Shown here: in pieces, positions 1 through 24,824 of the stretch
Layout: each line of letters opens with the position of its first letter
Numbering within the stretch: position 1 is the stretch's first letter
Source: a virus
Direction: 5' to 3' (one strand)
Length of the DNA: 24,824 bases
IMG/VR virus record: IMGVR_UViG_3300021400_000064
Location: 1 to 24,824 of that record
Made by a program: the position numbers and the translations under genes
Notes under the pieces: model-generated
Database searches by the model: none
The model's input: only the letters and a program-made list of their open reading frames with translations
What the model was told of the DNA's origin: nothing

Positions 1-107
1 AACCCATATACAGGCATTCATTATGGGCCTGCGCGTAAATACCGCACATTAGCGCAGATTGTTGATAGAGATGTCTATACTATTGTTGAGGAGCGTAATG
101 GCTGGGG
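1..107. repeat. Terminal direct repeat copy 1 (identical to 24718-24824). This is a circular-contig overlap or terminal redundancy; the unit length is 24,717 bp.
   Basis: aacccatatacaggcattcattatggg...gagcgtaatggctgggg occurs at both ends of the window. The repeat lies inside an open frame, and 24,717 = 3 x 8,239, so the frame is preserved across the junction. Confidence 0.95.
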
Positions 108-2553
108 TAGGTTAAAAGAATACTATCACGGCTGGATTATGTTATCAGCAACAGAAACGATAGTAGGACCTGGTTAGAACCCAGATTATGATACGCCAAC
201 AGACCAAACCGCAGTTATTCCATTCGCGGAGCATATAAATATTACTCGTTTGACTGTTGATAGATTGTGGGCTTATGTTCCAGCAGAAGAAAGTTGGATA
301 AAAGCCGAAGATATCAGTTATGATTAGGCTGGTAAGTTATATAATGCTTTGGGTATATTCACGATTGACTTGGAAAATGATGTAGATTGGACTACCGTTG
401 AAAGCATTGATGATATTGGTATTAAACCTGAATTAAGGCATTTACATTATCACGATTATGCCAATTATGTCTATGATGGTGCTCTTACAAAAGAAGCATT
501 TAGTAATATACACGATTTAGAATTTGTCTATCCGGAGACGGTTTATAATTATAATTGTATATATTATAAGGGTAATAAGTTCGCGGATAATGAATTGGGT
601 AGAACCGCATTTAGTTGCTCTATAAGCGATTGGAACCCTGATTGGGACCATTTCATTGAAACAAGTTGGATTGTTGATGAAGATGAAAATGAGGTATTGC
701 CAGAGTTGTATCGTGGCGCACCTATTTCTCTAAATTGGGATTACTTTGGCTTTGACCGCAACCTCTTCAAGCCAACAGGATACTATGATGGTATCTATTT
801 ATGGAACCCACATCCATGGGATGAAGAGCATCTATACTTCACTTTTGAAGAATTAGTGCGGACAGGCACATAGTATGTTATTTACCCATTCTTCGACCCA
901 CACGCTTATAAGTATTGGCATATGGTAAGATTAAAAACCGTGTCAGACGCAGGTAATGTTAATCAAACTCAATTCTGTTTAGACAGTGATAACACTTATA
1001 CAGAAGGTGTTTGGGAAATTGAACCGCCTATGAAGCGTGTTTCAACAGACAGATTGTATAACCAAGACTGGGGCGCTGGTTGGTATAATGATACAACAAC
1101 GCTACCAGCGGGTTGGCATATAAATGCTAATACAAGCATTTCACCATTATATTTCTCATTAGGTGGTGGCCCATTCGCAAATTATACAAGTAATTCTGTA
1201 AATGGAAAAATTAAGTCCGTAAGCAGAGACGGATAGGGTGCTATCTTATATCCTGACGATTATTTCAAGGATTTATTGAAGAGCACTAATTCCGCGCAAG
1301 TAGATAGTGCGACTGCTGAATTGGCATTGCGCGAAGAATTGGGCTTATTAAATATGATGGAATATGAGCCAAACGGTTATTACCGCATTACAGGTAGCGC
1401 GATTTCACCATATAGTGATTTGTTCTTATCAAAGATACCTTATCATAACGAATATGAACCCAAGTATTACATTTCCACTATTTATAATCGTTATTTCGGT
1501 TAGAATAGAACAAGTGGTTATGCTAATAAATGGCGACCAATTACATCACAGCATTTGTCTCTATATCAACAGGAATGGAACCCGATACAGATGAAGGGCG
1601 ACCCAAATGCGTGGAGAAGCAAACCCTATATTGGTGGCGGCGTCTATCACGGTGTGCGCTCTTATTTAAATGGTATATTAGAGCATTACTATGTGCCAGT
1701 TCCAAAAGGAATGTGGTATGAGTGGGATGGCGTCAAGAGCCAAATCACAGGTAATGGCTTATTCGATTTAATTACGGGCACGCTAAAAACTGATGACCCT
1801 GGCTGTGTTTTCACATATGATTATCGTAGCGCTGATGGTGAAGAACCATACGAGCATCGTTATGATTATTTCAGTGGATGGCAGTATGATGAAACCACTA
1901 TTCAACCTGCTATGTGGTATCAAATCACAGCATCAACAGACACATACAATCAACCTGACGCACTTGCTAATAAAATTCGCACATTATCAAATGGTTTGTA
2001 TCTACCTGTTGATAAACAAACACAAGATACAGAGAACCGTGTATAGGGCTTATGGTATCATAGTGCTAACTACTGGTTCAAAGTTAATAGCAACATATCT
2101 ATTGCCACGATGACTGGCACGCTAACAACAGAAAAGATTACAGCCGCAGTTATTCCAGATACGAATACAACTATCACGGTATTCAACTATGATGCGTATG
2201 ATAATCCTGATGGTAGCGCAACTTCAACAAGAGCGAATAATGGTAGTTTCTTACTCACGAGTTATTACACTTATAAAGTAGGGAATAAGACATTATTATT
2301 CAGCGGAAATAAGTGGTATGATATGGCGCATACCTCATTAGCGCACGAAGAAATGAATAATAATTATGTAGTAGCAGTAGATAGGTTAAATTATTACACC
2401 TATCCTATTGAAAATGATACATATAAAGCAGGATAGTATTTGGCTGGCGACCGTCTGTTTGTTCCATATCGCTCTTCTCGTAATACGAATTGGTATTACA
2501 CAGGACAGGGTTGGGTCAAATACGCAGATGGTAATTTATCATTAGTTGAATGA
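1..2553 (+). CDS. C-terminal part of the giant (~2,890 aa) tail adhesin/fibre protein; it continues from 18598..24717 across the junction.
   Basis: Frame 1 is open from base 1 to TGA 2551-2553 and is broken only by TAG (175, 325, 871, 1234, 1501, 2044, 2434). Track ORFs 349-873, 922-1236, 1276-1503, 1555-2046 and 2110-2436 all lie in this one frame. SH3b-like segments are present (VYTIVEERNGWGRLKEYYHGWIML; RLFVPYRSSRNTNWYYTGQGWVKY). Confidence 0.8.
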
Positions 2554-2564
2554 GGAGTGGTAAT

Positions 2565-2918
2565 ATGACAAGTAATTACTATCCTATTGTATTAGATGAG
2601 CGTGAAGGCAGTTTCAGTATTACAAATACTGGGACTGCCCCATCCCCTTGTGTAATCACGATAGTCCCAAGAGTAAGTTTTATCACTATGAAAATTGAAG
2701 GGTTAAGTGAAGACCCTATTGTTTTATCATAGATTGCCGCAAATGATGTTGTTGTTATAGACGGTGAATAGCGTGAGTTCCGCGTAAATGGCTCACTCGC
2801 TTGGGATAAATTTGATGGCTGGCAGTTCCCGCACTTGGAGCCTGGCATCAACACAGTAAAAATTACGAACTCTAATATGATGGATATTGAAGTTGCGTAT
2901 AACGCGAGGTATATCTAA
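2565..2918 (+). CDS. Small tail protein resembling the C-terminal (galectin-like) domain of siphophage distal tail proteins (Dit).
   Basis: GAGGAG RBS at 2552-2557 lies 7 nt before the ATG. Peptide: ITNTGTAPSPCVITIV...VVVIDGE[TAG]REFRVNGS...FPHLEPGINTVKITN. There are 2 in-frame TAG (2730, 2769) and the gene ends at TAA 2916. An alternative ATG at 2550 has no RBS. Confidence 0.7.
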
Positions 2919-2919
2919 T

Positions 2920-3948
2920 ATGATGAAAGTTTATGACACCGAGCATCAGTTTTTAGGTTTTTTCACTGATGGCTTACGGAATGTATATACAACAGAAACA
3001 TTGGAAACAGGGACCAAAAGTCTCTGTTTCCAAATGCCCTGTTTAGATAAATATTTATCATTAGTGCGGGAAGAACATTATATAGAAACGCAAGATTATG
3101 AATATATCGTAAAAGAATTGGTATTAGAAAAGAATGATTTCTTTACTGTCTATTGCGTTGCGAATATAGAAGAATTAAGTGGAACCACTTTTAGTGTATT
3201 TGATTGTTTTGAAAAGAACCCCGAACAAGCATATACCTATTGTTTGTAGCCTGTTCCAGCGTGGAGTTTAGATTATCAAAGTCAAGTAGCAACGGTCCTA
3301 ACTTTATAGACCGCTAATGTTTCTGCTCTTGAAATGATAAGAACTGTTGCGGAAATGAATAGCCAAGAGTTGTGGTTTGATGCCAAGAATAAGGTATTGC
3401 GCGTTTATGATAGAATTGGGCGCGCGAAGAGTAATATATACTATTCAAATGAATTAAAATTGCGGCAACTGTCAAAACAGTCATCAACTTACGATTATGC
3501 TACTGTTTTATATCCTATTGGTAAAGATGGATTAACTATTGAGAGTGTAAATAATGGTAGAAACTTTATTGAGAATTATAGTTATACCAACAAGAGGATA
3601 GTAAAGTATTGGTATAATGATGATATTGATGTGCCTGAACGCTTATTAGGTGCGGGGTAGGATTATTTAGATAGTATTGCTGAACCCGTGAGTAGTTATA
3701 AAGTATCGTTGAGTGAATTAAATCCCGACACACGATTGGGCGATACGATTATGCTTGTAGATAATATAAAGAAATTAAAGCAAAAGAAGCGAGTAGTAAA
3801 GATAGTGGATTTCCCATTTGAACCCGAGCGCAGTAATGTTGAAGTATCAAATAGGCAAGCAAATTTTGCGCGCACATTTGTAAAGCAACAGAAGGTATTA
3901 GATAAAGAAATCAAGTATATCCGCTCGGTAATCAAAAATATTTAGTAA
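2920..3948 (+). CDS. Baseplate hub / tail-associated protein N-terminal region (Tal-like, phage minor structural protein N-terminal family).
   Basis: Track ORFs 2887-3249, 3334-3660 and 3688-3945 are in one frame, joined by TAG at 3247, 3307 and 3658. Motifs: MKVYD..., LYPIGKDGLTIESVNNG, LGDTIMLVD, PFEPERSNVEVSN. A fourth TAG at 3943 is followed directly by TAA 3946. Confidence 0.8.
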
Positions 3949-4011
3949 GTTTGGGACAAAATTGTTCCAACCCCTATAAAGTATTTTCATATAGCAGTGA
4001 GAGGTAAAAGT

Positions 4012-4179: not shown

Positions 4180-4208
4180 CTATATTATTTGAATAGGAGA
4201 CAAAATAT

Positions 4209-4820: not shown

Positions 4821-4838
4821 AAAATTTTTTGTTATAAT
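4810..4838 (+). promoter_or_regulatory. Consensus sigma70/sigmaA promoter P1.
   Basis: TTGACA (4810-4815), a 17-nt spacer, TATAAT (4833-4838) with an extended TGt. It is near-identical in layout to P2 and overlaps the HNH stop codon. Confidence 0.75.
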
Positions 4839-4844
4839 ATATCT

Positions 4845-4929
4845 GTCAATGATGAAAGTCATAGGCGTTTCTTCCTTATATAAAGTGAGCCTACTGTATC
4901 ACGACCAACCTCGGTAGGCTCATTTTTTT
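4845..4929 (+). ncRNA. Candidate ~85-nt small RNA (P1 to the intrinsic terminator).
   Basis: A perfect promoter is followed about 40 nt later by a stem-loop plus U7. There is no RBS-preceded ORF. The RNA contains ttcttccttat (4869-4879), complementary to the RBS region at 4968-4978. Confidence 0.45.
4886..4929 (+). terminator. Rho-independent terminator.
   Basis: tgagcctac (4886-4894) pairs with gtaggctca (4914-4922), followed by TTTTTTT (4923-4929). Confidence 0.7.
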
Positions 4930-4956
4930 GACAAACAAAAAATATTTTGGTATAAT
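4928..4956 (+). promoter_or_regulatory. Consensus sigma70/sigmaA promoter P2 (early/replication operon).
   Basis: TTGACA (4928-4933), a 17-nt spacer, TATAAT (4951-4956) with an extended TGg. It lies 30 nt upstream of the 4987 start. Confidence 0.8.
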
Positions 4957-4986
4957 ATATTTAGAAAATAAGGAAGAAGGAATGTT

Positions 4987-5205
4987 ATGGAATATCAAGA
5001 TATTATTGCTGAATTAAAACAAGTATTAGCAAAAGCACCTATATATGATGACACGCCAGAAAGTTGGCATTTACATATAATAGAAAGCATTTTGGATGAT
5101 AGTGTATATCAAAGATTATGTGAAGAAAGAGATAACATTATAGATGATGATGCTGAAACTATTGTTGAGTTATTGCCATACATCTATGGTAATATGAATT
5201 ATTGA
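4987..5205 (+). CDS. Small acidic hypothetical protein (72 aa).
   Basis: AAGGAAGAAGGA RBS, then an intact ORF ending in TGA. No TAG codons. Confidence 0.6.
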   Translation: MEYQDIIAELKQVLAKAPIYDDTPESWHLHIIESILDDSVYQRLCEERDNIIDDDAETIVELLPYIYGNMNY

Positions 5206-5210
5206 TAACG

Positions 5211-5226
5211 ATGGCATATATGCCAT
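5211..5226. promoter_or_regulatory. 16-bp perfect palindrome ATGGCATATATGCCAT (possible operator).
   Basis: Exact self-complementary sequence in the intergenic region just after the 4987 gene. Confidence 0.3.
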
Positions 5227-5239
5227 AATAATATATGGG

Positions 5240-5267
5240 GCGTCCATTGTTATGGACGCTTATTTTT
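5240..5267 (+). terminator. Rho-independent terminator.
   Basis: gcgtccat (5240-5247) pairs with atggacgc (5252-5259), followed by ttattttt. Confidence 0.65.
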
Positions 5268-5289
5268 ATTCAAAGGAGAAGTCAAAAGT

Positions 5290-5472
5290 ATGACATACAA
5301 AAAGATTTTTATGAGACCATTGGCTGTTGAACTTCGTAAATTAGGTTATAGAATAGTTCAAGTTGAACCTAATTACCGCAAACCAGAATTAGATGTTTAT
5401 ACATTTGAAGTGTCTGGTAATTTTATGGTCGATTTTGCGCGGCTATCTAAAAATATTCGTCAGCAGAAGTAA
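5290..5472 (+). CDS. Small hypothetical protein (60 aa), DUF5659-like pattern.
   Basis: AAGGAGAAG RBS. Peptide: MRPLAVELRKLGYRIVQVEPN...VYTFEVSGNF. No TAG. The family assignment is from memory only. Confidence 0.55.
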   Translation: MTYKKIFMRPLAVELRKLGYRIVQVEPNYRKPELDVYTFEVSGNFMVDFARLSKNIRQQK

Positions 5473-5492
5473 GCCAGATAGGAGATAGCCAT

Positions 5493-5915
5493 ATGATAAG
5501 ACAGATGCCAGTATTAGCCCACAAGGGTGATAAGTTTGTTGCGGGACAAGCATTTTGGAGTATCCCGCAAGATATTCTAATTTATGCTTTCAAAAATCTT
5601 ACTTATAATGAAACGCAAGTTTTAGTTTATTTAATTGGTAATAAGCCCAAGTGTGAAGAAGAAGATTATAAAGGTTGGCAGATTAGTAATATCGAAGATT
5701 GTGTGAGTGGTAATGATAGAACCATTCGTGCGGCAAGAGCCACTTTGGCGCAAATGGGGTTTATTCGTCAAATACCTAATCCTGATGGTAAAACATATTC
5801 TACTATTGTTGTTGATTTTGATTGGATTAGAACAGTAGTAAGAAATGGTTGGGATAAAGAAACAACAATAAAAAACTTTGGCGGTTCCCCAGAACCGCGA
5901 ATTGGTAGCAAATGA
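5493..5915 (+). CDS. Winged-helix replication initiator-like protein (140 aa).
   Basis: AGGAGA RBS. Peptide: NETQVLVYLIGN...ISNIEDCVSGNDRTIRAARATLAQMGFI (wHTH-like). The 3' end and downstream flank carry the iterons. No TAG. Confidence 0.6.
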   Translation: MIRQMPVLAHKGDKFVAGQAFWSIPQDILIYAFKNLTYNETQVLVYLIGNKPKCEEEDYKGWQISNIEDCVSGNDRTIRAARATLAQMGFIRQIPNPDGKTYSTIVVDFDWIRTVVRNGWDKETTIKNFGGSPEPRIGSK

Positions 5916-6000
5916 CGGTTGTGTAGAACCGTGATTTGCTAGGAAAATACGGTTGTGTAGAACCGTGATTTGCTAGGAAAATGAGGTTGTGGAGAACCGC
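5882..6000. repeat. Iteron array (candidate origin of replication) followed by an AT-rich tract (6001-6035).
   Basis: There is a 34-bp periodicity with units starting at 5882, 5916, 5950 and 5984. The two central units are nearly identical over their 34 bp (they differ only in the last base) and read cggttgtgtagaaccgtgatttgctaggaaaat. Each unit has a CGGTT...AACCG inverted core. The first unit is diverged and lies inside the rep 3' end; the last is partial. Confidence 0.75.
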
Positions 6001-6144
6001 ATAATATATAAATTAGTAATAAATAAAATATGGGGAATACATAAGGTTAGAAACAAGATAATTCAAAAACCTTTTCGCCCCAGAGGTTGGATTTAGATAA
6101 TTTTTGCTGATAAAGAGACATATATAGTGAATAGGTGAGGAATT

Positions 6145-6336
6145 ATGGAGAACAAATTATTTTATTGTTATTCTAAAAACTTATGTTTATTCCTTAAATT
6201 AAATGGGATAAATTATGAAACAAAAGCAAGGCATCCTAATGGCACATATTATTATACATACATCAAAAATGATAAGTTGTTGAAGGGCTTATCATAGTGG
6301 AATAAATATAAAGAAACATTCGCGCAAATGAGGTGA
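6145..6336 (+). CDS. Small hypothetical protein (63 aa), apparent paralog of the 5290 gene.
   Basis: AGGTGAGG RBS. Peptide: MENKLFYCYSKNLCLFLKLNGINYETKARHPNGTYYYTYIKND...LS[TAG]WNKYKETFAQMR. One TAG (6295). Ends at TGA. Confidence 0.55.
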
Positions 6337-10423: not shown

Positions 10424-10452
10424 TTGACACCGTGATTTTTTTAGTCTATAAT
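10424..10452 (+). promoter_or_regulatory. Consensus sigma70/sigmaA promoter P3.
   Basis: TTGACA (10424-10429), a 17-nt spacer, TATAAT (10447-10452). It fires antisense through the minus-strand gene toward scaffold and capsid. Confidence 0.75.
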
Positions 10453-10695
10453 TCAAATCAAGGGCTCCGCATAGTTCTTCACTTTATCTGTTAGTGTATA
10501 ACCGAGATATTTTTTAGCATAATCAAATTTCATAGTGGTGAGGGAATGCGGCACCTCTTTACCATCTTTCTTGCGGGTGTGCTTTTTGTTGCGCTCCTTT
10601 TGTAGCCAAAGCAAAGCATCTTTATCTTTGCGCGCTACCGCGTCTGCGATGAGGTCATCGAGAGACATTGCCATTATTTCCTTCGTAGTAGCCAT
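10453..10695 (-). CDS. Hypothetical 80-aa protein, the only minus-strand gene (possible regulator).
   Basis: AGGAGGTG RBS (complement of 10701-10708), ATG start, intact ORF ending in TGA. No TAG. Basic central segment: KERNKKHTRKKDGK. Confidence 0.65.
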   Translation of the reverse strand: MATTKEIMAMSLDDLIADAVARKDKDALLWLQKERNKKHTRKKDGKEVPHSLTTMKFDYAKKYLGYTLTDKVKNYAEPLI

Positions 10696-10715
10696 ATAAC
10701 CACCTCCTGTTGGTG

Positions 10716-10744
10716 ATTATAATACACGATGACCGCATTGGCAA
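10716..10744 (-). promoter_or_regulatory. Strong minus-strand promoter for the 80-aa gene.
   Basis: On the - strand: TTGCCA (10744-10739), a 17-nt spacer, TATAAT (10721-10716). Confidence 0.65.
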
Positions 10745-10842: not shown

Positions 10843-11418
10843 ATGGAAGATACTAATGATAAGGGTATGGAAAACACGCAAACTCCTAATGAGGGTGCGG
10901 AAACCCCAAAGACTTATACAGAAGAAGAAGTTCGTGCGTTATTACAACAAGAGGGAGACCGTAGGGTATCCCAAGCGTTGAATAAACAGCGTAAAGAGTT
11001 GGAGAAGAAGCAAGCCGAAGCAGAGAAACTTCGTGATATGGATGAGAACCAGCGCCGCGAATATGAGTATAATAAAAAGGTTGCGGAGTTGGAGCAGAAA
11101 GAGCGTGAGTTCGCTATCGCGCAGAATAAGTTAGAAGCATCGAAGGTGCTCGCTAATAGAGGTTTGCCAGTCCAATTTGTAGATTATATAGTTGCTGATG
11201 ATGCTGATACTATGATGGCGAATATCGACACATTTGATAAAGCATTTAAGAGTGCGGTTGCTGATGCTGTTGCTATTCGTATAGCGCAGCCTACGCCGAA
11301 ATCTGGTTCAGCAACACAAACAGGAATAACAAAAGAGCAGTTTAGAAAACTAAACCTGGCTCAACAAGCAGAAATATATAAAACTAATCCCACATTATAT
11401 AGGGAATTGATTAGTTAA
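10843..11418 (+). CDS. Scaffolding protein (DUF4355-like).
   Basis: AAGGAGA RBS. Charged coiled-coil peptide TEEEVRALLQQEGDRRVSQALNKQRKELEKKQAEAEKLR. It sits immediately upstream of the capsid gene. All 15 Gln codons are CAA/CAG; none is TAG. Confidence 0.8.
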   Translation: MEDTNDKGMENTQTPNEGAETPKTYTEEEVRALLQQEGDRRVSQALNKQRKELEKKQAEAEKLRDMDENQRREYEYNKKVAELEQKEREFAIAQNKLEASKVLANRGLPVQFVDYIVADDADTMMANIDTFDKAFKSAVADAVAIRIAQPTPKSGSATQTGITKEQFRKLNLAQQAEIYKTNPTLYRELIS

Positions 11419-11434
11419 TAAGGAGTGTATATAT

Positions 11435-12370
11435 ATGGCAGCATATCCAGATAGCCACATTATTTATGAAAATGAAGTATTAGAAAATAAAATCACCGAT
11501 TTACTTATTACTGCGGTTGATTTATCCAATTATATGACTGTTGATAACAGTCTTACACAGAACGCAGGTATGACGAAGGTTATTAACCGTTATACCGCTT
11601 CTGGTAATGTTGAAGACCTTGAAATGGGCGAGGGCAACACCAAGGGTATTGAAGTTTCGTTTGACCCAGTTAGTTATGTTGTTGGCACCACACAGGGACG
11701 CTTTGCTTATTATGACGAGCAGGCTATGACTGACCCAATGGTTGTCGATGTTGGACTTGATGGTTTAGCAAAGACTATGGTGAATGATTTCACCACAAAG
11801 GCTATTGCGGAGTATGAGAATGCCGACCTTGGTATTGAACTTAACAGCGGTTGGAGTTTTGATGCTGTTGTTGATGCTATCGCAAAGATGAACCTTGAAG
11901 ATGAAAGTGGTTTATTCTTACTTATTTCTCCTGCGGACCAGGCCGCTTTCCGTAAGGCGCTCAAAGATGACCTCAAATATGTTGAGGGCTTTGTCCGCAC
12001 TGGTTATATCGGTAGTGTTTGCGGTGTTCCTGTAATCGTATCCAAGGCTGTTGATGCTGGCGTTGGTTTCCTTGCGACTAAGGACGCGATTACCTTATTC
12101 ATCAAGAAGGCTACTGAAATCGAGCAGGAGCGCGATGCTAATGTTCGTAAGAATACAGTTTATGCTCGTAAGGTTGCTGTTGTCGCGCTTACTGACGCTA
12201 CGAAGTTAGTAAAGATTGATGGGCGTGGATATTCGGTTGCGGAGACCTCGATTTCTACTAATCCTGCGGCAGAAGGTTTATTCGAAAAGACAGAAAATGG
12301 TGCTTATGTTCCTTCCAAGGATACTACTGCTATTAGTGGCAAGACTTATTACACACAGGATAGGGACTAA
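11435..12370 (+). CDS. Major capsid protein (HK97-fold type).
   Basis: AAGGAG RBS and a 311-aa intact ORF after the scaffold gene, followed by a terminator. No TAG. The call rests on position and composition; the family is not verified. Confidence 0.8.
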   Translation: MAAYPDSHIIYENEVLENKITDLLITAVDLSNYMTVDNSLTQNAGMTKVINRYTASGNVEDLEMGEGNTKGIEVSFDPVSYVVGTTQGRFAYYDEQAMTDPMVVDVGLDGLAKTMVNDFTTKAIAEYENADLGIELNSGWSFDAVVDAIAKMNLEDESGLFLLISPADQAAFRKALKDDLKYVEGFVRTGYIGSVCGVPVIVSKAVDAGVGFLATKDAITLFIKKATEIEQERDANVRKNTVYARKVAVVALTDATKLVKIDGRGYSVAETSISTNPAAEGLFEKTENGAYVPSKDTTAISGKTYYTQDRD

Positions 12371-12380
12371 TTTAAATAAT

Positions 12381-12417
12381 GGCTCACGGTTTTAACCGTG
12401 AGCCACACCTTTTTTTT
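12381..12417 (+). terminator. Rho-independent terminator after the capsid gene.
   Basis: ggctcacggt pairs with accgtgagcc, followed by a T8 tract 5 nt downstream. Confidence 0.7.
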
Positions 12418-12436
12418 ACTATGAGGAGGACAAAAA

Positions 12437-12733
12437 ATGCTTGATAGATTAAAATTACTCCTTCATAAAGAAGATGATGATACTGTTGATGAATTATTAT
12501 TGTTGCTAATCACACTTTGTAAAGATGAAGCATACATTTATTGTAATTTAGATGAGTATGATGAAGCGTTAGATTATATCGTAATACAGATGGTAATTGA
12601 ACGCTATAACCGCATTGGTAGTGAAGGAACAACCGCGCAAAGTGCGTCTGGCGCATCCGCAACATATGATAGTTTTTATAGTAAAAAAGTAGAGCGTATG
12701 CTAAATAAGCACAGGAAGGTGAAGTGCGTATGA
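12437..12733 (+). CDS. Head-tail connector protein (gp6-like).
   Basis: GAGGAGG RBS. Peptide: LLLLITLCKDEAYIYCNLDEYDEALDYIVIQMVIERYNRIGSEG. No TAG. Confidence 0.65.
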   Translation: MLDRLKLLLHKEDDDTVDELLLLLITLCKDEAYIYCNLDEYDEALDYIVIQMVIERYNRIGSEGTTAQSASGASATYDSFYSKKVERMLNKHRKVKCV

Positions 12734-13035
12734 TAAAGAGAGATACACTTACCCGTATTCTACTTCAACCTATTGATGATGAAGAGGGCGGCAAGTCATT
12801 TGATGAACCGCAAGTAATGGAAACTATTCCAGCACATATTTCTTCTGGCGCATCTTCTAATGAGATTTCTATGTATGGTGTAAAGACACAGTATGTCTTA
12901 CATACTACTACTGATGTAAAATTAGATGACCGCGCAATTGCGAGGTATGTATGGAGTAGCAAGGTATTCAAAGTTATGAGACAAATCAAATCAGGCAACG
13001 AATGGTTTGCCACTCTATTAGAAGTGAATGAGTGA
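12730..13035 (+). CDS. Head closure / head-tail adaptor protein.
   Basis: ATGA overlap with the previous gene; the size and position are typical. No TAG. Confidence 0.5.
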   Translation: MIKRDTLTRILLQPIDDEEGGKSFDEPQVMETIPAHISSGASSNEISMYGVKTQYVLHTTTDVKLDDRAIARYVWSSKVFKVMRQIKSGNEWFATLLEVNE

Positions 13036-13046
13036 GGAGTGGTGAT

Positions 13047-13376
13047 ATGCTTACATTTGATAACGATACAAAGAAAATCCGTATGGTAGTAAAAGATACG
13101 GGCAGTATTACCGTGAATGTAGAAAATTATACTCTTAATGAGGGTGATGAAGTAGTATTCACAGTAAATACGGGGCGTGAGATTGAAACGCCACTCATTC
13201 AAAAGAAAGTATCAGTATTTGCTGATGGTAAAGCCGTTATTCAGTTATCTGTTGAAGATACGAATGTCAAACCAGGCACTTATCTTTATGATATTCAAGT
13301 TAATGGCGCAGATGGCAGAGTTGATACAATTGTTGGACCCGCAAAGTTCGTATTTGAAGGGGGCATAACATTTTGA
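13047..13376 (+). CDS. Hypothetical structural protein (beta-rich, Ig-like?).
   Basis: GAGGAG RBS 7 nt upstream of ATG 13047. No TAG. Confidence 0.5.
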
Positions 13377-15760
13377 GTGAAGAGAATGTAAATATTAACA
13401 TTGGTGCTACTATTGAGACTGACCCTGAAATAGTAGTTGAGTTTGCCAACCCTACATATCAAGGACCCGCTGGACCTGCGGGACCTAAGGGTGATAAAGG
13501 CGACCCATTCACTTACGAAGACTTTACCGCAGAACAACTTGCGGCACTCGTTGGACCAAAGGGTGATAAGGGCGATGATGGCGAACCTGGCCCCAAGGGC
13601 GACCCATTTACATATGAAGACTTTACACAAGAACAGTTAGCCGCATTAGTTGGACCACGCGGACCGCAAGGCGAACAGGGAATATAGGGCATACAAGGAC
13701 CGAAAGGTGATACTGGCGACCGAGGCATTTAGGGATTACAAGGACCCCAAGGTGAGTAGGGTGTATAGGGACCACAAGGTATCCAAGGCGAGACTGGACC
13801 GCAAGGGCCCAAAGGCGATAAAGGAGACGCATTCAGTATTGCCGCGATTTATAGTAGCCTTGCTGAAATGAACCTTGACTTCTCCAATAGTAATGTTAAG
13901 TTTGGAGATTTTGTTATCATTACTTCTACTGTTGATGACCCAGACAATGCCAAACTTTATGTGAAGACATCAAGCGGTTTCAACTTTATTACTGATATGT
14001 CAGGTGCCGCAGGCATCCAAGGCCCAAAGGGTGATACTGGTGAGACAGGTGCTATTGGACCATAGGGACCGCAAGGTGTATAGGGTATTCAAGGACCGCA
14101 GGGTGAAAAAGGGGATACAGGACCTGCTGGAACATATACCGCAGGTGAAGGTATTGACATTACAAATGGTGTAATTAGTTCCACTGTTGATGGTGCTATT
14201 TATTCCGCTGGCGATGGTATTTCTATTGATGCCAATAATGTTATAAGCACGACAAAAGATTATTATATTATTAAATATCAAAATAATATAGCAAATTATA
14301 GTGCGGAAGATTTACAAAGATTGTATGAACTTGGTGGTTTCCAAGAGACCGCAAAACCAGTTGTAATAGAATATATGTATAAACACTATCATTATGCTGG
14401 TAGAACAGGCACTTAGATGGTGTTTGTAAATTGGAAGGCTGGCGGCACTGCTTCGCGCCACACAGTAGAACCAAATGCTATTATTTATTATATGGATAGT
14501 TTGAAAGAGACAATAACGAATTAGTTATTAGTCGATACTAATATAGGTATATATTCTTCAAATATATTCAGTAATAACGCTAATAACAACCCATCAGGAT
14601 AGAGTAATTCTAATTTATAGACGGAATTACAATATATTAAAAACAATTACACAAAGACCGCTGATTTAGCGGCTGTTGCTACATCGGGCAGTTATAATGA
14701 TTTAACTGATAAACCGACCATTTCAGGCGGCACCACTTATACTGCGGGCACTGGTATTAACATCACTAATGATGAAATTAGTGTTGATGCTACTGCTTTA
14801 TCATATAATGATTTACAGAATAAACCCACTATCCCAACAGTGCCGACCAATGTAAGTTCTTTTACTAATGATGCTGGGTATCTAACTACGCATTAGGATA
14901 TTAGTGGTAAGGCGAATAGCGCGGATTTAGCAACTGTTGCTACTTCTGGTTCATATAATGATTTATTAGACAAGCCAGAAATTAGCGAGGGTGCTACCTA
15001 CTCTGCTGGTTATGACATTTATATCGATGAAAATAATGTCATTAATGTTGATAATTTTATTGTTGATGTTAATTTAATGCTTGGCTCACAATCTGGTAGT
15101 TGGGAACTATTCTTTAATGGAAGTCCTTGGATAAATAGAAGTGTCCCAAATGACCCAGATAATGACGCGTTTGTTTATTTATATGATTGCTATTATGCCA
15201 GCGGTAAGAGTTGGGTTAATACACATTGCCATATCCATCCCAATGGATAGAACGCCGAATGGGGAAAAATTGTTTATGTCGATGGCGATGAAACGAGCAC
15301 TACAATCACTTTTGGCATATTCTTTGCGCCGAATTACTATTTAGAGTTAGGATATCGGCAACTTCCCACTGATGAAACACGCAGATACTTATATAGCGCT
15401 TCTGGCACCATAATTACGCCATCTTTGGCTTGGGATAGAACTAATAATATAGTTAAGGTTCGTGTGGAAAATGGACTAAATAAATTATATATAGACCCCA
15501 CCGCTATTTCCTATAATGATTTAACTAATAAACCAACTATACCTGACTTGACAGGATACGCAACTCAAACATATGTTGATAATGCTATTGGTTAGGTTCC
15601 TACTTATAGTGCTGGCACAGGTATTAGCATTAGTGCGAGTGGTGAGATTAGTTGCTCTGTTGTTGATACTAATACTACATATACTGCTGGTAATGGCATT
15701 AGTATTAATAATGGAGTTATTTCTTTAAATTTAACTAATGCGAATGGGGTGAGTTATTAA
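13373..15760 (+). CDS. Collagen-like fibre protein (795 aa).
   Basis: Frame 2 is open from TTG 13373 (which overlaps TGA 13374) to TAA 15758, with 13 TAG. Gly-X-Y runs are unbroken across TAG. There are two [18 protein letters not shown] units and repeated SYNDL(T/Q/L)(D/N)KP(T/E)I motifs. The start codon is uncertain. Confidence 0.85.
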
Positions 15761-16987: not shown

Positions 16988-17179
16988 ATGAATAAATTAT
17001 ATACTGCTCCCAAAGGTAAAGTATATGATTGGGCTGAACCGCATACAGCCCATATTGTTGAGCCTGACGGCACTATAACAGAAGTAGTAGAGCATTTATA
17101 TGCTAAATACTTGTCTATTGCTCGTGCCGACAGTATTGACAACTATATTTTGGTTGATGACCCGAGGGAGAATAAGTAA
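16988..17179 (+). CDS. Hypothetical protein (63 aa).
   Basis: AAGGAGGGG RBS and an intact ORF. No TAG. Confidence 0.55.
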   Translation: MNKLYTAPKGKVYDWAEPHTAHIVEPDGTITEVVEHLYAKYLSIARADSIDNYILVDDPRENK

Positions 17180-17571
17180 TGTTAGCAACAACCAAGAAAA
17201 AGTTTTGTAAGTTCTTGCGCGCATTAGAATATAATGTTGATGATAATGGTAATTATCGTGAGGAGTTTCCTTGGCTGATGTTGAGTATGGGTGGCGCAAG
17301 GGTATTAAAATCTAACGATTTAAATATGACTGAAATCCAACTCAAACTTGATATATTCAGCACTTATACGGGTGAAAAAGAGATACTTACTATTGTCGAT
17401 AACATTAATAGTCATATTCGCGCATTTATGGATGAGAATGCGGAAATCCAATATGTGTTTATGCGCTCTTTGCGTATAATTGATGATAAAGAGACAGGGC
17501 CTGTTCGCAAGCACGGGATAGCGCAGTTCTCTTTTATTGTGGCGCAGGAGGATATAAGCGATGGCGAATAA
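17179..17571 (+). CDS. Putative tail completion/terminator protein (130 aa).
   Basis: TAATG overlap, and a position directly upstream of the major tail protein. No TAG. The function is inferred from position only. Confidence 0.45.
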   Translation: MLATTKKKFCKFLRALEYNVDDNGNYREEFPWLMLSMGGARVLKSNDLNMTEIQLKLDIFSTYTGEKEILTIVDNINSHIRAFMDENAEIQYVFMRSLRIIDDKETGPVRKHGIAQFSFIVAQEDISDGE

Positions 17572-17950
17572 TGTTTAGAAGGGCATAAATATAGTCCTAA
17601 AAATAGGTGAGACTTTATTGGGCGGGCAGTTAGGTGCTACGCTCATTTAGTCTGCTTCTTCTATTGATATTACAAATAAAATTACAGGCGAATGGCAAGA
17701 GGTTTTAGAGGGTATAAAATCTTGGTAGATTACAGGTAATGGTTTATATGTAAAGAATAGTATCACATATAAAATGCTTCAAGATGCCTTTAATACTAAT
17801 ACTGCTATTGATGTAGAAGTAATGCTTGACGAGCATCGTTATGTCGGTAAGGCAATTTTAGTTGAGTTCCCACTTACTGCGGTTTATAACGGAACATATC
17901 GTTATAATTTCCGCTTATTGGGCGATGGAGCACTGACGATAAGTGAATGA
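17561..17950 (+). CDS. Major tail (tube) protein, TP901-1-like (129 aa).
   Basis: AGGAGG lies 9 nt upstream. Peptide: IVLKIGETLLGGQLGATLI[TAG]SASSIDITNKITGEWQEVLEGIKSW[TAG]ITGNGLYV...YRYNFRLLGDGALT. Three TAG. Ends at TGA 17948. Confidence 0.75.
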
Positions 17951-18443
17951 GCGCATTGTTGAGATTGATGGTAAAAATTATCGGTTCAAAATTGGACTTC
18001 GTAGTATAATTTATTTACAGTCTCTTTCAAAGATTGATGAAGGTGATATGTTTGTCGCTGGCATAATTACCTTTAATGATATTCCTATAAAAACGGCAAA
18101 GTTGATGTATCAGCGGCTTTGTCGTCAAAAAGATTATCAGCCATTATTTGAATAGGTTATCTCAACTCCTTTCATTGATGTGCGGGATTTATATCGAAAA
18201 GCCGTTGGCGAACTTGGTATAAGTCCCGCCATTTTCTACCAAATGTCGCCAGATGAAGTGGAATTAGCCTATCAAGGGTATTTGCGTAGATAGGAATTAT
18301 CCGCAAACCTTACTAAATTAGCAGTATTATAGGCTTTACACGATGACCGAAATGAGATTACTTTGGCGGCAACGCCTGAATATTCAGTGGGGACAGAACC
18401 TGACCGAGAAAAAACATTTTCTGTATTGGGGATAGAAGAATGA
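17943..18443 (+). CDS. Tail assembly chaperone-like protein, possibly a very short tape-measure-like protein (166 aa).
   Basis: It occupies the position after the tube gene. Peptide: LGISPAIFYQMSPDEVELAYQGYLRR[TAG]EL. Three TAG (18153, 18291, 18330). Ends at TGA 18441. Confidence 0.5.
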
Positions 18444-18598
18444 CAGATTATGAAACAGTAAAAAAGAATGTAGCAGATTAGATGAGTTAGGTGTCTTATC
18501 AGTTTGAGCGCACATCAACTTTACAAGAGGATAATACTGCTACTCTATTGAATGACATTGGTTTAGCGATAAACCGTGAAGGAGGTATGAGTATCTAA
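18440..18598 (+). CDS. Small protein (52 aa), or the -1 frame extension of the preceding gene.
   Basis: ATGA overlap upstream and TAATG overlap downstream. Two TAG (18479, 18488). Confidence 0.4.
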
Positions 18599-21500
18599 TG
18601 CTAATCAACGGTATAAATATAAATACCCTTGGTGTCAAATTATATGATAGAGTTATTAACTCTAACACTGTTGATACTACACAAGAATGGTTAGATGGTG
18701 ATATTCAGCCCACTTTTGTTAGACAGTAGGACCGTTTCAAAACTATGACACTTGCGTTCCTTGTATTAAATACTGATGAGGAAAACGCGTTTTTGCGTAT
18801 AAGCCGTTTAACGCAAGCATTACGCAAAGCGACATTATAGTTTGATGATATTAGTCTTACTTTTGATACAACATTAGTGGGCGCGGCAGAACCTGAACGC
18901 TTAAAGAACGGTAATTTTATCGTTAGATATACTCTAAACAGTGATTACGCGTAGGGTAATCGTGAAATATATACGACAGATGCCAAAGCAACAAGCGCAT
19001 TTAGGCTCACCGTTCTTTACTACAAAAACACAACTCAATTAGTCGGGCAGGATGTATATACTATTCGTGCTGGGGCTTTTGATGTTGGAACACCAACATT
19101 AAGTTCTATTGGTATTGATGTGGATAAATACCGCGAACAACACTATAATGCTGGTGCCGCAACTAATATGGGTTCGATGGAACTTACATATGAAAATTTA
19201 CAGTCTCTTGGGACTTTAATTATTAACTATGCGCCTGTGCGCTACAATCTCACACTTGCTTACTATATGAATAGTGGAGAGGGTTATAATGAGACTTTAC
19301 AAGAGACGATAACCTTTACACATCCACAACTTCAAAATATTAAGACCATCGGGCAACTATTTGATGTAAATACTTACCGTCCTGATGGTTATCGTGCGAC
19401 TATTGATTATAGCGGACCTCTTACTGTTGAAGGACTACTTGCGGCATCTCCTATTGCGGTTATGTATGATGTAGTTCAAAACGAACAGAGTAAGAATATA
19501 ACAGTAGTTTATCGTAATGAAAATGACGCTGGCGGTTATGATATTATAGATAGTGAATTATTGAATGTGCGTGAAACCGCTATTACTGATGGTAAAACTT
19601 TACGCGACATTTTCAACCTTAACGCATATAAGCCTAACAGCCTATACTATTTTGATGGGACCATTGAGGGCTATAATGCTGATGACCTTATTACTTATGC
19701 GGATTTGAATACAACTTATTACATCAACTACCGCAGACAAGAGCACACTATCTATGTTGAGTATTATGCTGGAACCTATCCAGATTGGTATCGCCTCACT
19801 AATATTCCTCTTACAGTAAAATATAAAGATGCGTATGAAGAAGAGTTTAATATTACAGACATTGGTTTGGATTTAGACCGCTATCATACAGCAGAGTATC
19901 AAAGAGGACAACTTTATAATGGCGATAACTTTGAGACATTTGATGATGTAATTACTACTGGCGTTCTTCAAGTATATTATGTGCCTATTGATTTCACTAT
20001 TAAGGTTCGTTATAAGAAAGATGATGCGAATGAATACACCGAAAAAGATGTAGTAATCAACGCATTACAGTTCTTTGGCGACCCAGTATTAAGTGATATT
20101 ATAGACATAAATACTGACCGTCCAGAAGGATATCAGTTAGATTTAGAAGAGAGTTATAACGGTGAAATTACACTTTCCGCACTCACAACGAGTTCTCCAA
20201 TATATATTGTATATGAAGAAATACAAGAAGTGCGGCAAAAGAATATCATAGTTAGGTATAAGCAACAGTTATCAAGCGCCTATTCTACCATAAATACTTC
20301 CATTTTGGTTATTAATGAAGCAGACTGCGTTGGTGGCGTGCGGTTGCGCGACCTTATCAACTTAAATCTCTATCGTCCAGATTACTATGATGGTGGTATC
20401 TTGAATGGCGCGAGTGAGAGTGCTTTATTGACTTTTGATGATTTACTCGCAAATTATGAAGTATTATACCGTGCTTCTACATACAACACTCCTGTATATT
20501 ACTATACGGATGATGTTGATGAGCGTAATTGGATTGGTAGTTCTGTAATTAATTATACAGTCCTTGATTTTACAACAGAAACAACACTGTATGATTTAGG
20601 GTTAGACCCAAATCAATATAAACCTTCATACGCCGCAGATGGTGTAGTTCAATATAATGGCGCTATTTCATTTAGTGCTTTACGCGGCTTATCAAGCATC
20701 AACATTGTGTATGATAGTATTGAAGAGCCAGAAGACCCAAGTGGTATTGATTATCCGCACAGGTTCTTATTCTTACAACATAATGATTTAGGCGCATATG
20801 AAAATCAGCATCCAGAATGGACTATGAACCACGCTTATATTAATACAGGCGTAAGCGTCCAGGATATGTCTAAATTGACAGTTATTATGGAGGCAAAGCG
20901 TGTTGATGAATATGTGGCGCCACATACAGTAAATGCGGGCTATGCTTACTTATTCGGTAGTTCATCTGCTCTTGGTTAGTATTATATGCGGTTTAACAAC
21001 CAAACGATGTATGGCACTAATCTAACGGGTGTAAATACTTATGAAGCAAAAGCAGGTAATACCGTAAATGCGTTAGTGCTGACAGAGGAGAACGCTATTG
21101 GTTGGAGTGAAAATTCTGGTATTTACTCTACATAGAATTATAATGGCTATTCAACAGCCACATTTACATATAGCAACCGTATGCCGACAGAGCACGCGCA
21201 AATGCCATATCCGCTTTATCTGTTCGCTAATAATAACAGCGGTTCCTATGCTGATGGACTTGCGGGATGGGGCATTTACAGTTGTAAGATTTTGTATGAT
21301 GGATAGTTATTGCGTGATTTTATCCCCGTTCAGTATTACGACAAGATTGGCGATAAGATTGCGCCAAGCAACTGTTTATATGATAAGATTAGCCAGAACT
21401 TCTTTGAAGATGCTACTGGCAAGAACAGTTTTAATATCATTGATGATGAGCGCTACACTGATACAAACCCAGAACATCAAATAGGTTCGTTCTATGTAAA

Positions 21501-24500
21501 TTATTATAAAGACGATATCCTTTATCAAACATCACAGATTTTCTTCCGTGGTAATGATTTTGATGAAGAATGGGATATGTATGATAAACTCAAAGTTGAT
21601 GATTTCCAACCGCCTTATTATAAATCTGGTAAGATTACTAACTTAAATGAGATTGCCGCGATTAATTTTGATAATTTAAATAATTTCATTTTTAAAGTAG
21701 TATATGAAGCGCAAGAAAATCAGTTTCAAGTAAATTATTATAAAGACAGTATTAATGAGAATAATTTGATTGCTTCTGATACTATTGCTCTTCAAGAGAG
21801 TGATTTCTTCCAAGTCCCTACTTTTGGTGATATTGTTCGTTTGAATAAATACCGTCCAGAAGGTTATAAAACAGACTTTGAGTATCCTGGCGCGAAGGTA
21901 TCCTTATCTCGCGTGATGGAGAACGCACCATACAATATTTTGTATGTGCCAGCAGGAACAGAAACAACTTATATCACAAGTATAAAATACATTAAAAAAG
22001 TATTTGGTATTCGCACTTATGAAACATTAGGCACTGTTGAAGTAGCGCTTACTGATAGTCAGTTCCGTGATGGCGAATATATTGAAAACTTTATTGATTT
22101 TAATGCGATGAAGCCAGCCAACTATTATAAAGATGGCGCGCCTTATCAGTGGTATTTAAAAGATATTAGATTAGATACGCCCGACAAATTAGCGCAAGAG
22201 TATATCGTAGTATATCAACCAGAAGAGCAAGCGTTAGAAATACGGTATTATAGAGATGAAGTAGCCGAGGAGAGCCTCATCGCAAATACTACCTGGATGA
22301 TTTCTGTTGATGACTTTGATGGGGAATTTTACTTGGTAGATTAGTTGCCTAATTCATTTATTAACCAATATAAACCTGTAAATGCTGATGGCGGTATTCT
22401 ACAAAATACTGATGTTCTTTACACATTCGCAAGTTTAGCAGAATACGGGCATATTGATATTATTTATAATAGTATTGCTTCTCCTGATGACCCAACTAAT
22501 GTTTCACGTATTGGTAAAGTGCTGTATTGGACTGCTAATGATATTACTTATAGTGATAGACAGACCTATACTTTGGGGAATGGTAAAGGTGTTAGCCATA
22601 CATATATTAATGGTGGTATAATTCCATATATAGATTTAGGATATACACCAAAAGAAATTGGTCGTCTTAAAGTTGAATTAAAAGCGCAAATGCTTACCGA
22701 TGGTTTTGCGACTGATACTACTAATTATGGTTATCAAGTTCCAGATTATACTTATGGATTTGGTTATTATGGTGCTTTGGGTGGTCCTGTGCTTGGAACA
22801 ACGCATAGCATCCAAGAGACTATGGATAAAGATAATGTAGGTATTACTTATCATAAATATATCCCGAAAAAGAGTTTTGCTTCTAATGGCGCTTTTGCTA
22901 TTCGCGGGCATATACCAAAAGCCTCAAAAGGTGTATATACTGATGTTGGATTACGCACGATAGACGGGCAGGATTTCTGGCTGACCTCTTTTAAAGGAGC
23001 AAGTGAAAGTCGTAGTGTATCCTTAAATCCGTGGATTATGAAATATAATGCGTTATCTGGCTTTTATCGTAAAGGTGCTTATGAAGATACAGATGATAAT
23101 TATAATTATATTAAAGCGTATAGTGATTATGATTATACTCGCACTTATAGTTTAGAGACATATCAAGATAGCAATATGAAGACTAATGAGAGTGAAAATG
23201 GTCTTTGGTCTTGGATGGCAGACCCGATTACGATGACATTAGATGCTTATCACTCTTATGCTTCTGCTTATGACTTTGGCACAAGCAACACTCTTACATA
23301 TACTAACTTTGATGAGAGCGCTGATATAGATATTTTTGAGAATAGATGTAAGCCTCGTGGCTCTATTACCTTATTCCGCACTCGTAATCCTGATACAGGC
23401 AAAATGAATATAATGCCATTTTCCGCAAAAACATACCCACTAATTACAGGTTTGGGTGTAATAGGCTTTTCTCAAAGTGAATTAACAAATATGTTAAACC
23501 CATTTAGTGATAATTTTACTGGTTCTGTTTCCAGGATAATTTTAGTCGGTTCTCATTATGATAGTGATAGTGATTTTGTTGATAGACAAGGCGACCAAGT
23601 AAATCCTGACTATCAGCCCCCAAGCGCGGTATATGAGTATATTACACAAGAAGTGAATGTTGCTTATAGTGATTTCCCTGTGCCAGTTTATCCACAAATG
23701 CGTGGTATGGCAGTATGGAGCCTCAAACTTTGGGATTAGGACCGTCTTGTGCGTGATATGATACCCGTCAAAAAAGGTGAAAAAATTTATGATTATGTAA
23801 TGCCTGATGATGGTTTATTTGACCTTATTACAGAGATTTTCTTTGGGAATAATAACCAAGGCGGCACATATACGCAAACCTATTGGACGAGTGATAGTGA
23901 TAATAAGCATAATGGTATGGTAAGCGAAACAACCACTATTGATGCGGCAGATGTATTACCTCTTCATTGTATTGATGACCCTTGCTATTATGGTAAGATT
24001 ACAGAAAATTATTATGATGAAGATAATCATTTTATTGCTAATCAGTATGTTGATGTTCCTACTTGGTTCTATGAAGGTAATACAACTCTTGCCGACGAAT
24101 TACAGTATAATGATTATAAGCCAGATGATTATCATTTAGATGGTATGCTTGATACTGATGACCCAGATAATCCAAATGAAGATTGGACTTTGGAAGAGAT
24201 TTATGATTAGGGTTTAATTAACATTTATTATAAATTACGGACATACGCTAAATCAGTAGTATATTATAGAGATAATTATCGAATTGGTTCGCGGGATTTA
24301 TTCTTCTCATTGAAGGATATTGAAAACGCAAATTCTTTAAGTGATTTAGGAATAGATGCTTCTTATTATCAAACAGACACATTTAAACCTGGGCGTCTGG
24401 TATTTAACAGTAGCATATTAGAGAATAATGATGTTGCTGGTTTTATTGATGCGCCAAGCCCGATTGTCGTTTATGATAAATATAGCAAAGCAGAACGCCC

Positions 24501-24824
24501 AGATTTACTCTATATTGAGTATTATCGTGGTGGAGCGTATGATGACCCAACAGCCGAGATTACATTAGATGGTAATAATGTAAATTACTTCAACTGTGAT
24601 TTACCTGCTGTCGTTCTAAATCCAAATGGCACTATTAAATATCGTAATCACTATCACAGCGCGATGTATGAGGATGAAGACCCTGGATACTTTGTGCCGT
24701 ATCAAGTGCGAGTTATCAACCCATATACAGGCATTCATTATGGGCCTGCGCGTAAATACCGCACATTAGCGCAGATTGTTGATAGAGATGTCTATACTAT
24801 TGTTGAGGAGCGTAATGGCTGGGG
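18598..24824 (+). CDS. N-terminal and central part of the giant (~2,890 aa) tail adhesin/fibre protein, with a Dit-like N-terminal domain; it continues at 1..2553.
   Basis: ATG 18598 follows GGAGG. Frame 1 contains no TAA or TGA to the window end, only TAG (18727, 18838, 18952, 20977, 21133, 21304, 22342, 23737, 24208). Track ORFs 19120-20979, 21310-22344, 22345-23739 and 23749-24210 all lie in frame 1. There are 13 or more ~80-aa repeats with the motif N.Y(K/R)P..Y. Confidence 0.8.
24718..24824. repeat. Terminal direct repeat copy 2 (identical to 1-107).
   Basis: Exact 107-nt match to the window start. Confidence 0.95.

Follow-up and report, generated by a model that had tools for sequence, protein, structure and literature searches.

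The DNA considered here is IMG/VR virus record IMGVR_UViG_3300021400_000064, positions 1 to 24,824, and the whole of this stretch is referred to as the window. Its most conspicuous feature is a giant open reading frame (ORF) of 8,673 nucleotides (nt) and 2,890 codons, or 35.1% of the genome, which by homology opens with the ring domain of the phage tail protein Dit and continues as a very long arm of repeats and predicted lectin modules. Window positions 1-107 are identical to 24718-24824, and the genome is therefore a 24,717-nt circle plus a 107-nt overlap. The overlap lies inside the giant gene, at amino acids (aa) 2041-2076, and looks like the circularisation overlap of an assembler, not a biological terminal repeat. 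Every recognisable gene is on the + strand, and the GC skew is positive across the whole window.

The upstream neighbours of the giant ORF are genes for a tail completion protein, the tail tube protein (17561..17950, +; Pfam Phage_tail_2, 2.8e-13) and two small ORFs (17943..18598, +), one chaperone-like of 166 aa and the other of 52 aa, which fill the usual site of the tape measure gene. The 5' part of the giant ORF encodes aa 1-2040 (18598..24717, +) and continues at nt 1, since 24718-24824 only repeats 1-107. The 3' part encodes aa 2041-2890 (1..2553, +) and ends with the stop codon TGA 2551-2553. It is followed by a separate 117-aa ORF (2565..2918, +) and by the gene of the tail-associated protein Tal (2920..3948, +).

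An in-frame TGA at 18577 precedes ATG 18598. From this ATG the first TAA or TGA in frame is the one at 2551-2553, across the circle junction, and exactly 16 in-frame TAG codons are passed on the + strand (nt 18727, 18838, 18952, 20977, 21133, 21304, 22342, 23737, 24208, 175, 325, 871, 1234, 1501, 2044 and 2434). Off frame, TAA and TGA together occur at a rate of 6.0% per codon, which corresponds to an ln P of about -180 for 2,890 free codons; a frame of this length therefore cannot be due to chance. The circle junction sits between aa 2040 and 2041. In L001, a 25.7-kb IMG/VR contig from another metagenome, the orthologous ORF is collinear, has 2,868 codons with 91% identity and lies in the middle of the contig. 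Across the junction (aa 2001-2100) the two proteins align without gaps at 99% identity. The orthologous ORF is also internal and collinear in L003 and L004 (49% identity) and in L055, L056, L057 and L058, and a PHROG domain match at aa 2018-2088 spans the junction. The junction is genuine and the ORF is one gene, because independent contigs carry its orthologue internally and collinearly. The preliminary description of this DNA had drawn a single ORF from ATG 18598 to TGA 2551 across the junction, and its coordinates and counts proved correct. Its statement that TAG decoding is needed for the full-length product was also borne out by the 16 in-frame TAG and the lack of TAA and TGA.

The Dit N-terminal (ring) domain, assigned by a match to the Dit of L002 and by profile search, occupies aa 1-118 (18598..18951, +). 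L002 is a more distant genome with the standard code, in which the gene order is tape measure (PF10145, 2.6e-47), 260-aa Dit and Tal. Residues 5-130 of this canonical Dit align to aa 1-125 of the giant protein (62 bits, E 7e-20), and its residues 182-240 align to the 117-aa ORF of the window. A profile of the N-domain, searched against 1.84 billion representatives, matched only 169 proteins, almost all of them at the N-terminus. Canonical Dits of ~230 aa, about 70 in number, make up the first class; the profile always matches them at the N-terminus, and their second half is homologous to the 117-aa ORF (to 1e-26). The second class includes a few classical evolved Dits of ~400 aa with the C-domain match split by an insert. 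Proteins of 470-1,054 aa without the C-domain form the third class, and the giants, none of which has the C-domain, form the fourth. The earlier suggestion of a Dit-like N-terminus is upheld by the L002 match and by the homology to the canonical Dits, and the homology-based identity of the giant protein is near certain.

The 117-aa ORF encodes the Dit C-terminal galectin-like domain (PF22768 SPP1_Dit, 3.7e-11; PHROG 33 Dit, 2e-14), and profile positions 1-97 of the 97 in PF22768 are covered without interruption. It has its own Shine-Dalgarno sequence (GAGGAG) and ATG and begins 11 nt past the stop of the giant ORF. The C-domain ORF is separate in all the relatives, where it follows a TAA or TGA stop, and its own GGAG-type ribosome-binding site and ATG were found in the three lineages read (window, L001 and L003). 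In six genomes its frames relative to the giant ORF are 2, 2, 0, 1, 1 and 2, with spacers of -8 to +21 nt. Fusion of the two ORFs by frameshift or read-through was ruled out by the separate Shine-Dalgarno sequence and ATG, the three relative frames and a second in-frame stop in L003. The giant protein does not carry a peripheral C-domain on its own polypeptide. With the N-domain opening the giant ORF and the C-domain encoded by the next one, the Dit of this family is therefore split, as judged from the homology of both halves: the ring domain is on the giant protein and the peripheral domain comes from a separate gene.

Tal follows after the C-domain ORF and has the N-terminal structural domain only (~342 aa; Pfam Prophage_tail, 1.3e-25, and PHROGs). 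The mechanically called Tal ORF starts at 2887 and overlaps the C-domain ORF (window 2887-2919). The length of Tal in the relatives (340-346 aa) and the starts of the PHROG matches suggest that ATG 2920 is the real start.

The arm begins with repeats. A hidden Markov model (HMM) seeded on the motif (L/I)N.Y(K/R)P detected 13 copies of ~85-90 aa, arranged in blocks of 7, 4 and 2 (aa 112-700, 934-1285 and 1777-1938), in agreement with the 13 or more repeats of ~80 aa described earlier. Block 1 comprises seven beta-grasp-like repeats at aa ~112-700 (18952..20697, +; HMM, AlphaFold2 (AF2) and Foldseek), block 2 four repeats at aa 935-1285 (21400..22452, +; HMM) and block 3 two repeats at aa 1778-1938 (23929..24411, +; HMM). 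Copies outside the HMM training set scored 8.8-13.8 bits versus a maximum of 3.7 in 50 shuffles. BLASTP self-comparison of the giant protein revealed no repeats at E<=1e-3. The relatives retain 12-13 copies, and a degenerate 14th repeat with the motif NLFKPTGYY was found at aa ~2195-2320.

Repeats 5-6 were modelled with AF2 from a TAG-free, exact segment of the window. The model, with a predicted local distance difference test (pLDDT) score of 80, shows a hairpin-helix-strand unit, and a Foldseek search of the PDB with it returned beta-grasp domains almost throughout, among them the R. gnavus immunoglobulin-binding protein, ISG15, the ubiquitin-like domains of USP7, staphylococcal superantigen-like proteins and YwfG. 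No Pfam match to MucBP or InlB B-repeat families (PF06458, PF09479, PF18998) was found in the window or in 17 relatives, and hhalign gave a probability of 0.2% when the repeat (1,329 instances) was compared with the Flg_new_2 domains of sister proteins. The repeat is thus beta-grasp-like by predicted fold and does not match the sequence models of MucBP and Flg_new. Of the earlier label "MucBP/beta-grasp-like", the second half stood and the first, MucBP membership, found no Pfam or profile match. The same predicted repeat fold is strung like beads in bacterial adhesins (MucBP/Mub, InlB B-repeats, R. gnavus 7KPJ and Lactococcus YwfG). However, those proteins are anchored in the cell wall, whereas the present one is a phage tail protein without sequence-level membership in their families.

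Between the repeat blocks are two copies of a larger module. Module A (aa 701-934; 20698..21399, +) is a conserved, LamG/ConA-like lectin jelly roll according to AF2, Foldseek searches of the PDB and the predicted viral structures of BFVD. It was modelled together with flanking repeats from the segment of P0001, which is 99% identical to the window there, and was predicted to be a beta sandwich (pLDDT 72). The PDB matches were CBM40 sialic-acid-binding modules, galectin, TSP2, the lectin domain of trans-sialidase and a phage tailspike (E ~1e-3). In BFVD, LamG-like/ConA-like proteins of tailed phages were matched, with a best E of 5.8e-10. Module B (aa 1286-1777; 22453..23928, +), defined by hhalign and the conservation profile, is the second lectin copy and holds a hypervariable insert of ~300 aa (aa ~1300-1700). 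By hhalign the two modules show homology at each end (94.6% and 96.4%), which confirms the two copies noted in the preliminary description.

Repeat block 3 is followed by a segment (aa 1939-2017; 24412..24648, +) that is conserved according to the conservation profile and has no match in any library. It is followed by aa 2018-2088 (24649..24717, then 1-144, +), which match the C-terminal tail of PHROG 1794 (amidase) with E 2.9e-5 and possibly form an SH3b-like wall-binding domain. The conserved region with the degenerate 14th repeat (aa 2089-2340; 145..900, +) was defined by the HMM and the conservation profile. The next region (aa 2341-2640; 901..1800, +) is hypervariable: family members show 6-16% identity to the window here, and indels are numerous. 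At aa ~2605-2636, hhalign (81.7%) finds the C-terminal strand motif of Module B again, which suggests a third module copy; the region is probably a highly diverged lectin module and is called Module C. The moderately variable region at the C-terminus (aa 2641-2890; 1801..2550, +; conservation profile and composition) is rich in Trp and Tyr. Trp makes up 2.9% of residues in the C-terminal third and 1.0% elsewhere (p=2e-4), as expected from the earlier remark on its Trp content, and Tyr is ~9-10% throughout. The giant protein as a whole has a mass of 331 kDa, an isoelectric point of 4.5 and 9.3% Tyr.

SH3b-like segments had also been proposed for this region, which was an overstatement. The whole 2,890-aa protein gave no Pfam matches, including none to SH3b (PF08239), and aa 2018-2088 gave its only PHROG match. 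Among 17 relatives, Pfam found only SH3_3, in 4 of them, in an insert missing from the window. When aa 2005-2095 and five other C-terminal segments were compared by hhalign with this genuine SH3_3 insert of the family, no similarity was detected. About half of the family has the extra SH3_3 domain of 80-110 aa at window aa ~2200-2300 (nt ~480-780), and the window and L001 are without it. The domain content of the arm therefore varies by gain and loss of cassettes.

Homologues of the giant protein number more than 200, and almost every one of the best 120 is full-length (2,829-2,967 aa, 49-93% identity). Their contigs are ~22-28 kb long and come from ENA, Logan and JGI samples, cattle included. 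In a comparison of 119 relatives, aa 1-1300 and 1700-2350 are conserved, while aa 1300-1700 (in Module B) and 2350-2600 (in the putative Module C) are hypervariable with many indels. The most diverged patches between the window and its 91% relative L001 are the same two, with 55-71% identity. Such variable patches on a conserved scaffold follow the pattern expected of receptor-binding surfaces. The nearest genome relatives of the capsid protein (39-49% identity) are in gut Clostridia, isolates included (Oscillospiraceae, Acutalibacteraceae, Faecalibacterium, Faecousia and Ruminococcus), which suggests that the host is Gram-positive. The N-domain, the repeat and Module A were not found within 10 kb of 49 capsid-related loci in Clostridia genomes.

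Sister lineages have proteins of 470-1,054 aa (for example, P0143, 831 aa, of L054) that share the N-domain and the gene order of tube, small ORFs and Dit-N fusion. They are also without a tape measure and without an on-chain C-domain, and also bear an adhesin-type extension. One of them gave a weak match to Pfam Sipho_tail. However, these proteins are three to six times shorter, and their recognisable Pfam domains (Flg_new_2/Flg_new, that is, InlB B-repeat, Fn3_assoc and CHB_HEX_C_1) are not detectably related to the repeats of the window. Since sister lineages fuse the same N-domain to adhesin domains, the ring domain with an adhesin arm is a recurring design, of which the giant gene is an extreme form.

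In known phages, Dits form a hexameric hub ring with peripheral C-domains, and evolved Dits with carbohydrate-binding modules (CBMs) bind host saccharides (PMC7291167). The giant protein is probably an extreme split evolved Dit, that is, a 331-kDa tail-tip adhesin composed of a ring domain and an arm of ~2,770 aa. By this reading, six N-domains would form the hub ring under the last ring of the tail tube, as in known Dits, which would place six arms of ~330 kDa (~2 MDa in total) around the tail tip. The beta-grasp repeats would serve as spacers. The lectin modules, and perhaps the SH3b-like segment, would bind polysaccharides in the cell wall of a Gram-positive host among the gut Clostridia, with the hypervariable inserts setting the host range. 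The free 117-aa C-domain would dock non-covalently on the ring, at the site of the galectin domain in ordinary Dits.

Evolved Dits (PMC7291167) likewise join a Dit to modules of the carbohydrate-binding type, act as host-adhesion devices and are encoded just upstream of Tal. Unlike the present protein, they carry one or two CBMs in the loops of the galectin C-domain on one chain. Here no CBM lies inside the galectin-domain loops; the insert of ~2,770 aa is at the boundary of the N- and C-domains and is followed by a stop codon, and the C-domain is intact and separate. The arm is several times longer than the longest one-chain relatives of the N-domain found in the search. The module is LamG/ConA-like by Foldseek and not demonstrably BppA-like. 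The insert site, the size, the two-polypeptide Dit and the module types distinguish the present protein from known evolved Dits. Lambda gpM, a ring-only Dit (PMC7291167), shows that a Dit N-domain can work without a covalent peripheral domain. In contrast to gpM, which has no extension, the ring domain here has the 2,770-aa arm and a peripheral domain supplied as a free subunit.

Several points weigh against this picture. Pfam Sipho_tail (PF05709) gives no match to the N-domain of the window, and no solved Dit is detectable by sequence: the N-domain profile found nothing significant in the PDB, and the whole-family profile gave no matches to PDB sequences at E<=1. The PDB matches of the two modelled pieces are weak (best E 7.8e-3 for the repeat and 1e-3 for Module A), their pLDDT values are moderate, and no fold is assigned to about 950 aa in the C-terminal third. 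The hexamer, the geometry of the arms, the docked C-domain and the binding of sugars are all argued by analogy. Furthermore, a tail tip without a tape measure may not assemble as the textbook triad of tape measure protein (TMP), Dit and Tal, and the hexamer picture might not transfer to it. Finally, no suppressor tRNA was found in the window or its relatives by ARAGORN and Rfam.

The TMP-Dit-Tal triad is described as conserved in all siphophages analysed (PMC7291167). No tape measure was found by Pfam or PHROGs in the 24.7-kb circle, where no other ORF is tape-measure-like and no tape measure gene lies upstream of the Dit domain. The space from the tube gene to the Dit-N start is a mere 457-1,106 nt in three lineages. 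These intervals hold the chaperone-like ORF (a conserved ~88-aa domain with a weak Phage_TAC_6 match) and one or two ORFs of 52-99 aa, whereas L002 has a 1,530-aa tape measure at the same position. The intervals of L003 (8936-9974), L054 (4201-4663), L055 (2480-3004) and L057 (2317-3001) are also without a tape measure gene. The small upstream ORFs were considered as a conserved mini tape measure, and only the chaperone-like ~88-aa domain turned out to be conserved; for the last small ORF, two lineages share a weak similarity and a third has a different one. It is proposed tentatively, as a possibility on the doubtful side, that the siphovirus-type tail tip of this clade (tube, Dit and Tal) has no tape measure or only a remnant of ~50-100 aa. 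If this is true, the triad rule is broken, and the split Dit would be part of a re-engineered, probably very short-tailed initiation complex.

The missing tape measure might instead be borrowed. Neither the 24.7-kb circle nor the near-complete L003 has a recognisable gene for a tape measure, endolysin, holin, DNA replication, integrase or tRNA. Besides structural and packaging genes, only an HNH endonuclease gene (4209-4820) and about ten small unassigned ORFs (3997-6336) are present. This gene content is what a helper-dependent, satellite-like element would show, one that obtains its tape measure, lysis and replication functions and TAG suppressor from a co-infecting code-15 phage and uses the adhesin to retarget the borrowed parts. 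However, genes for terminase, portal, capsid, connectors, tail tube, Dit, Tal and fibre are all present in the genome itself, and the unassigned small ORFs could supply lysis or replication functions. A detectable suppressor tRNA is, moreover, missing in ~60% of TAG-recoded phage genomes and was detected in only ~40% (10.1101/2021.08.26.457843). Dependence on a helper is therefore considered unlikely.

TAG encodes Gln genome-wide (code 15). Treating TAG as a sense codon raises coding on the + strand from 4,377 to 7,912 aa. TAG terminates none of the genes and makes up 25% of all Gln codons in the window. In-frame TAG occurs in most genes and is equivalent there to Gln codons. Between the window and L001, TAG differs at 13 positions, 10 of which pair it with CAA or CAG. 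In the alignment of seven genomes, the codons opposite TAG are CAA in 92 and CAG in 66 cells (158 together) versus 49 for Glu and 42 for Lys. Four TAG sites of the window fall in family alignment columns where Q is invariant or nearly so. The share of Q among family residues is 34% at TAG sites, compared with 31% at CAA/CAG sites and 3% overall. Orthologues of the giant gene contain from 1 (L056, L058) to 48 (L057) TAG and never an internal TAA or TGA, and none of the TAG positions is common to all seven compared genomes. The giant gene somewhat under-uses TAG (16% of Gln codons vs 29% elsewhere, p=0.009). In these comparisons TAG behaves as an ordinary Gln codon and not as a programmed stop. 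No tRNA gene and no Rfam family match at gathering thresholds was found in the window, L001, L003 or L004, and a permissive Rfam scan gave one sub-threshold match at chance level (psRNA6, E 0.18).

Partial suppression at the 16 TAG could nevertheless be functional, with chains stopped at TAG 18952 yielding a Dit of 118 aa, the ring domain alone, for co-assembly with the long fusion. This codon (aa 119) is exactly at the end of the N-domain, lambda gpM offers the example of a ring-only Dit, and a free C-domain is present here. No suppressor tRNA gene was found in the window and relatives, and at 90% read-through per site only ~19% of the chains would reach full length. However, L001 has CAA at this codon and 111 of 119 family members have Lys, so that the short Dit envisaged in the preliminary description was not supported. 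The upstream TAG at aa 44 and 81 would truncate the N-domain first. No TAG position is shared by the seven genomes, two of which (L056 and L058) contain just one TAG over the entire gene, and the Q profile is the same at TAG as at CAA/CAG sites. Functional isoforms are thus quite improbable, somewhat more so than dependence on a helper.

The giant protein might also replace the tape measure as a length ruler or central fibre, and not act as a peripheral adhesin. Its ORF occupies the position of tape measure plus Dit after the chaperone-like ORFs in a genome without a tape measure. However, the protein opens directly with the Dit ring domain, matches no tape-measure family in Pfam or PHROG and is beta-rich, with no 100-aa window reaching the level of helix formers that 15 of 29 windows of the L002 tape measure show. 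Both predicted pieces are globular beta domains, and globular lectin and beta-grasp domains would not be expected to thread a lumen of ~40 Å (width from PMC7291167). A ruler function is very improbable. The chance that the region consists of several standard-code genes ending at TAG, or that a gene-internal repeat caused a false circle, is negligible: standard-code gene calling does break the region into fragments and the 107-nt overlap does sit in a repeat-bearing gene, but the comparisons with L001 and among seven genomes already refute this, since the ORF is internal, collinear and free of indels at the junction in six further contigs that come from different samples, repeats beyond BLAST detection cannot mislead an assembler or cause a false circle, relatives with one TAG keep the same ORF of 2,870-2,880 codons, and more than 200 full-length homologues exist. 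The split evolved Dit with an adhesin arm remains the preferred reading.

The distribution of TAG along the genome is uneven. Blocks of genes at window 10843-13376, 4987-5915 and 16988-17571 are free of TAG and include those for the scaffold, the major capsid protein, two connectors, a 114-aa ORF, three small ORFs of the early region and the tail completion protein. In the neighbours of these blocks TAG reaches 75% of Gln codons, and TerL has 13 TAG in 419 codons. The tail tube gene contains 3 TAG, and the TAG-free blocks are therefore not simply an avoidance of TAG in abundant proteins. Between L056 or L058 and L057, a single gene spans the range from nearly standard-code to heavily recoded members of the family.

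Two further genes were noted. A 795-aa collagen-like protein (13373-15760) has G-X-Y runs, repeated 11-letter motifs, 13 TAG and matches to PHROG tail fibre families. Its gene is between those for head completion and tail completion, which is an unusual site for a fibre; L003 has a 380-aa collagen-domain gene there. A 94-aa hydrophobic ORF (10432-10716) rich in Cys, His and Phe, with 2 TAG, is located between the MuF-like and scaffold genes. It has no database match and may be spurious or encode a small membrane protein.

The virus resembles the Topaz clade of ~22-kb Oscillospiraceae phages (10.1101/2021.08.26.457843) in the use of TAG for Gln, a genome of ~25 kb with genes on one strand, a monotonic GC skew, an affinity to Firmicutes/Clostridia and an origin from animal guts. 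However, the Topaz phages were described with an integrase, and a tape-measure gene is labelled on the prophage maps in Fig. 5 of that paper; neither gene was found here. A giant gene is not mentioned in the paper.

The giant protein and its homologues define a large, so far unannotated family of gut-phage adhesins. Under the standard code one-third of the genome appears as about 10 fragments, which makes this gene a clean case for code-15-aware annotation, and the family could serve for studying the spread of recoding. Should the tape measure truly be absent, a rule of siphovirus tail assembly would be called into question. The two hypervariable lectin-type patches are candidate host-range determinants for phages of gut Clostridia, which are hard to culture. 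The family would also bear on the limits of the Dit scaffold, in which a ring domain of 118 aa carries an arm of 2,770 aa and the peripheral domain has become a separate subunit.

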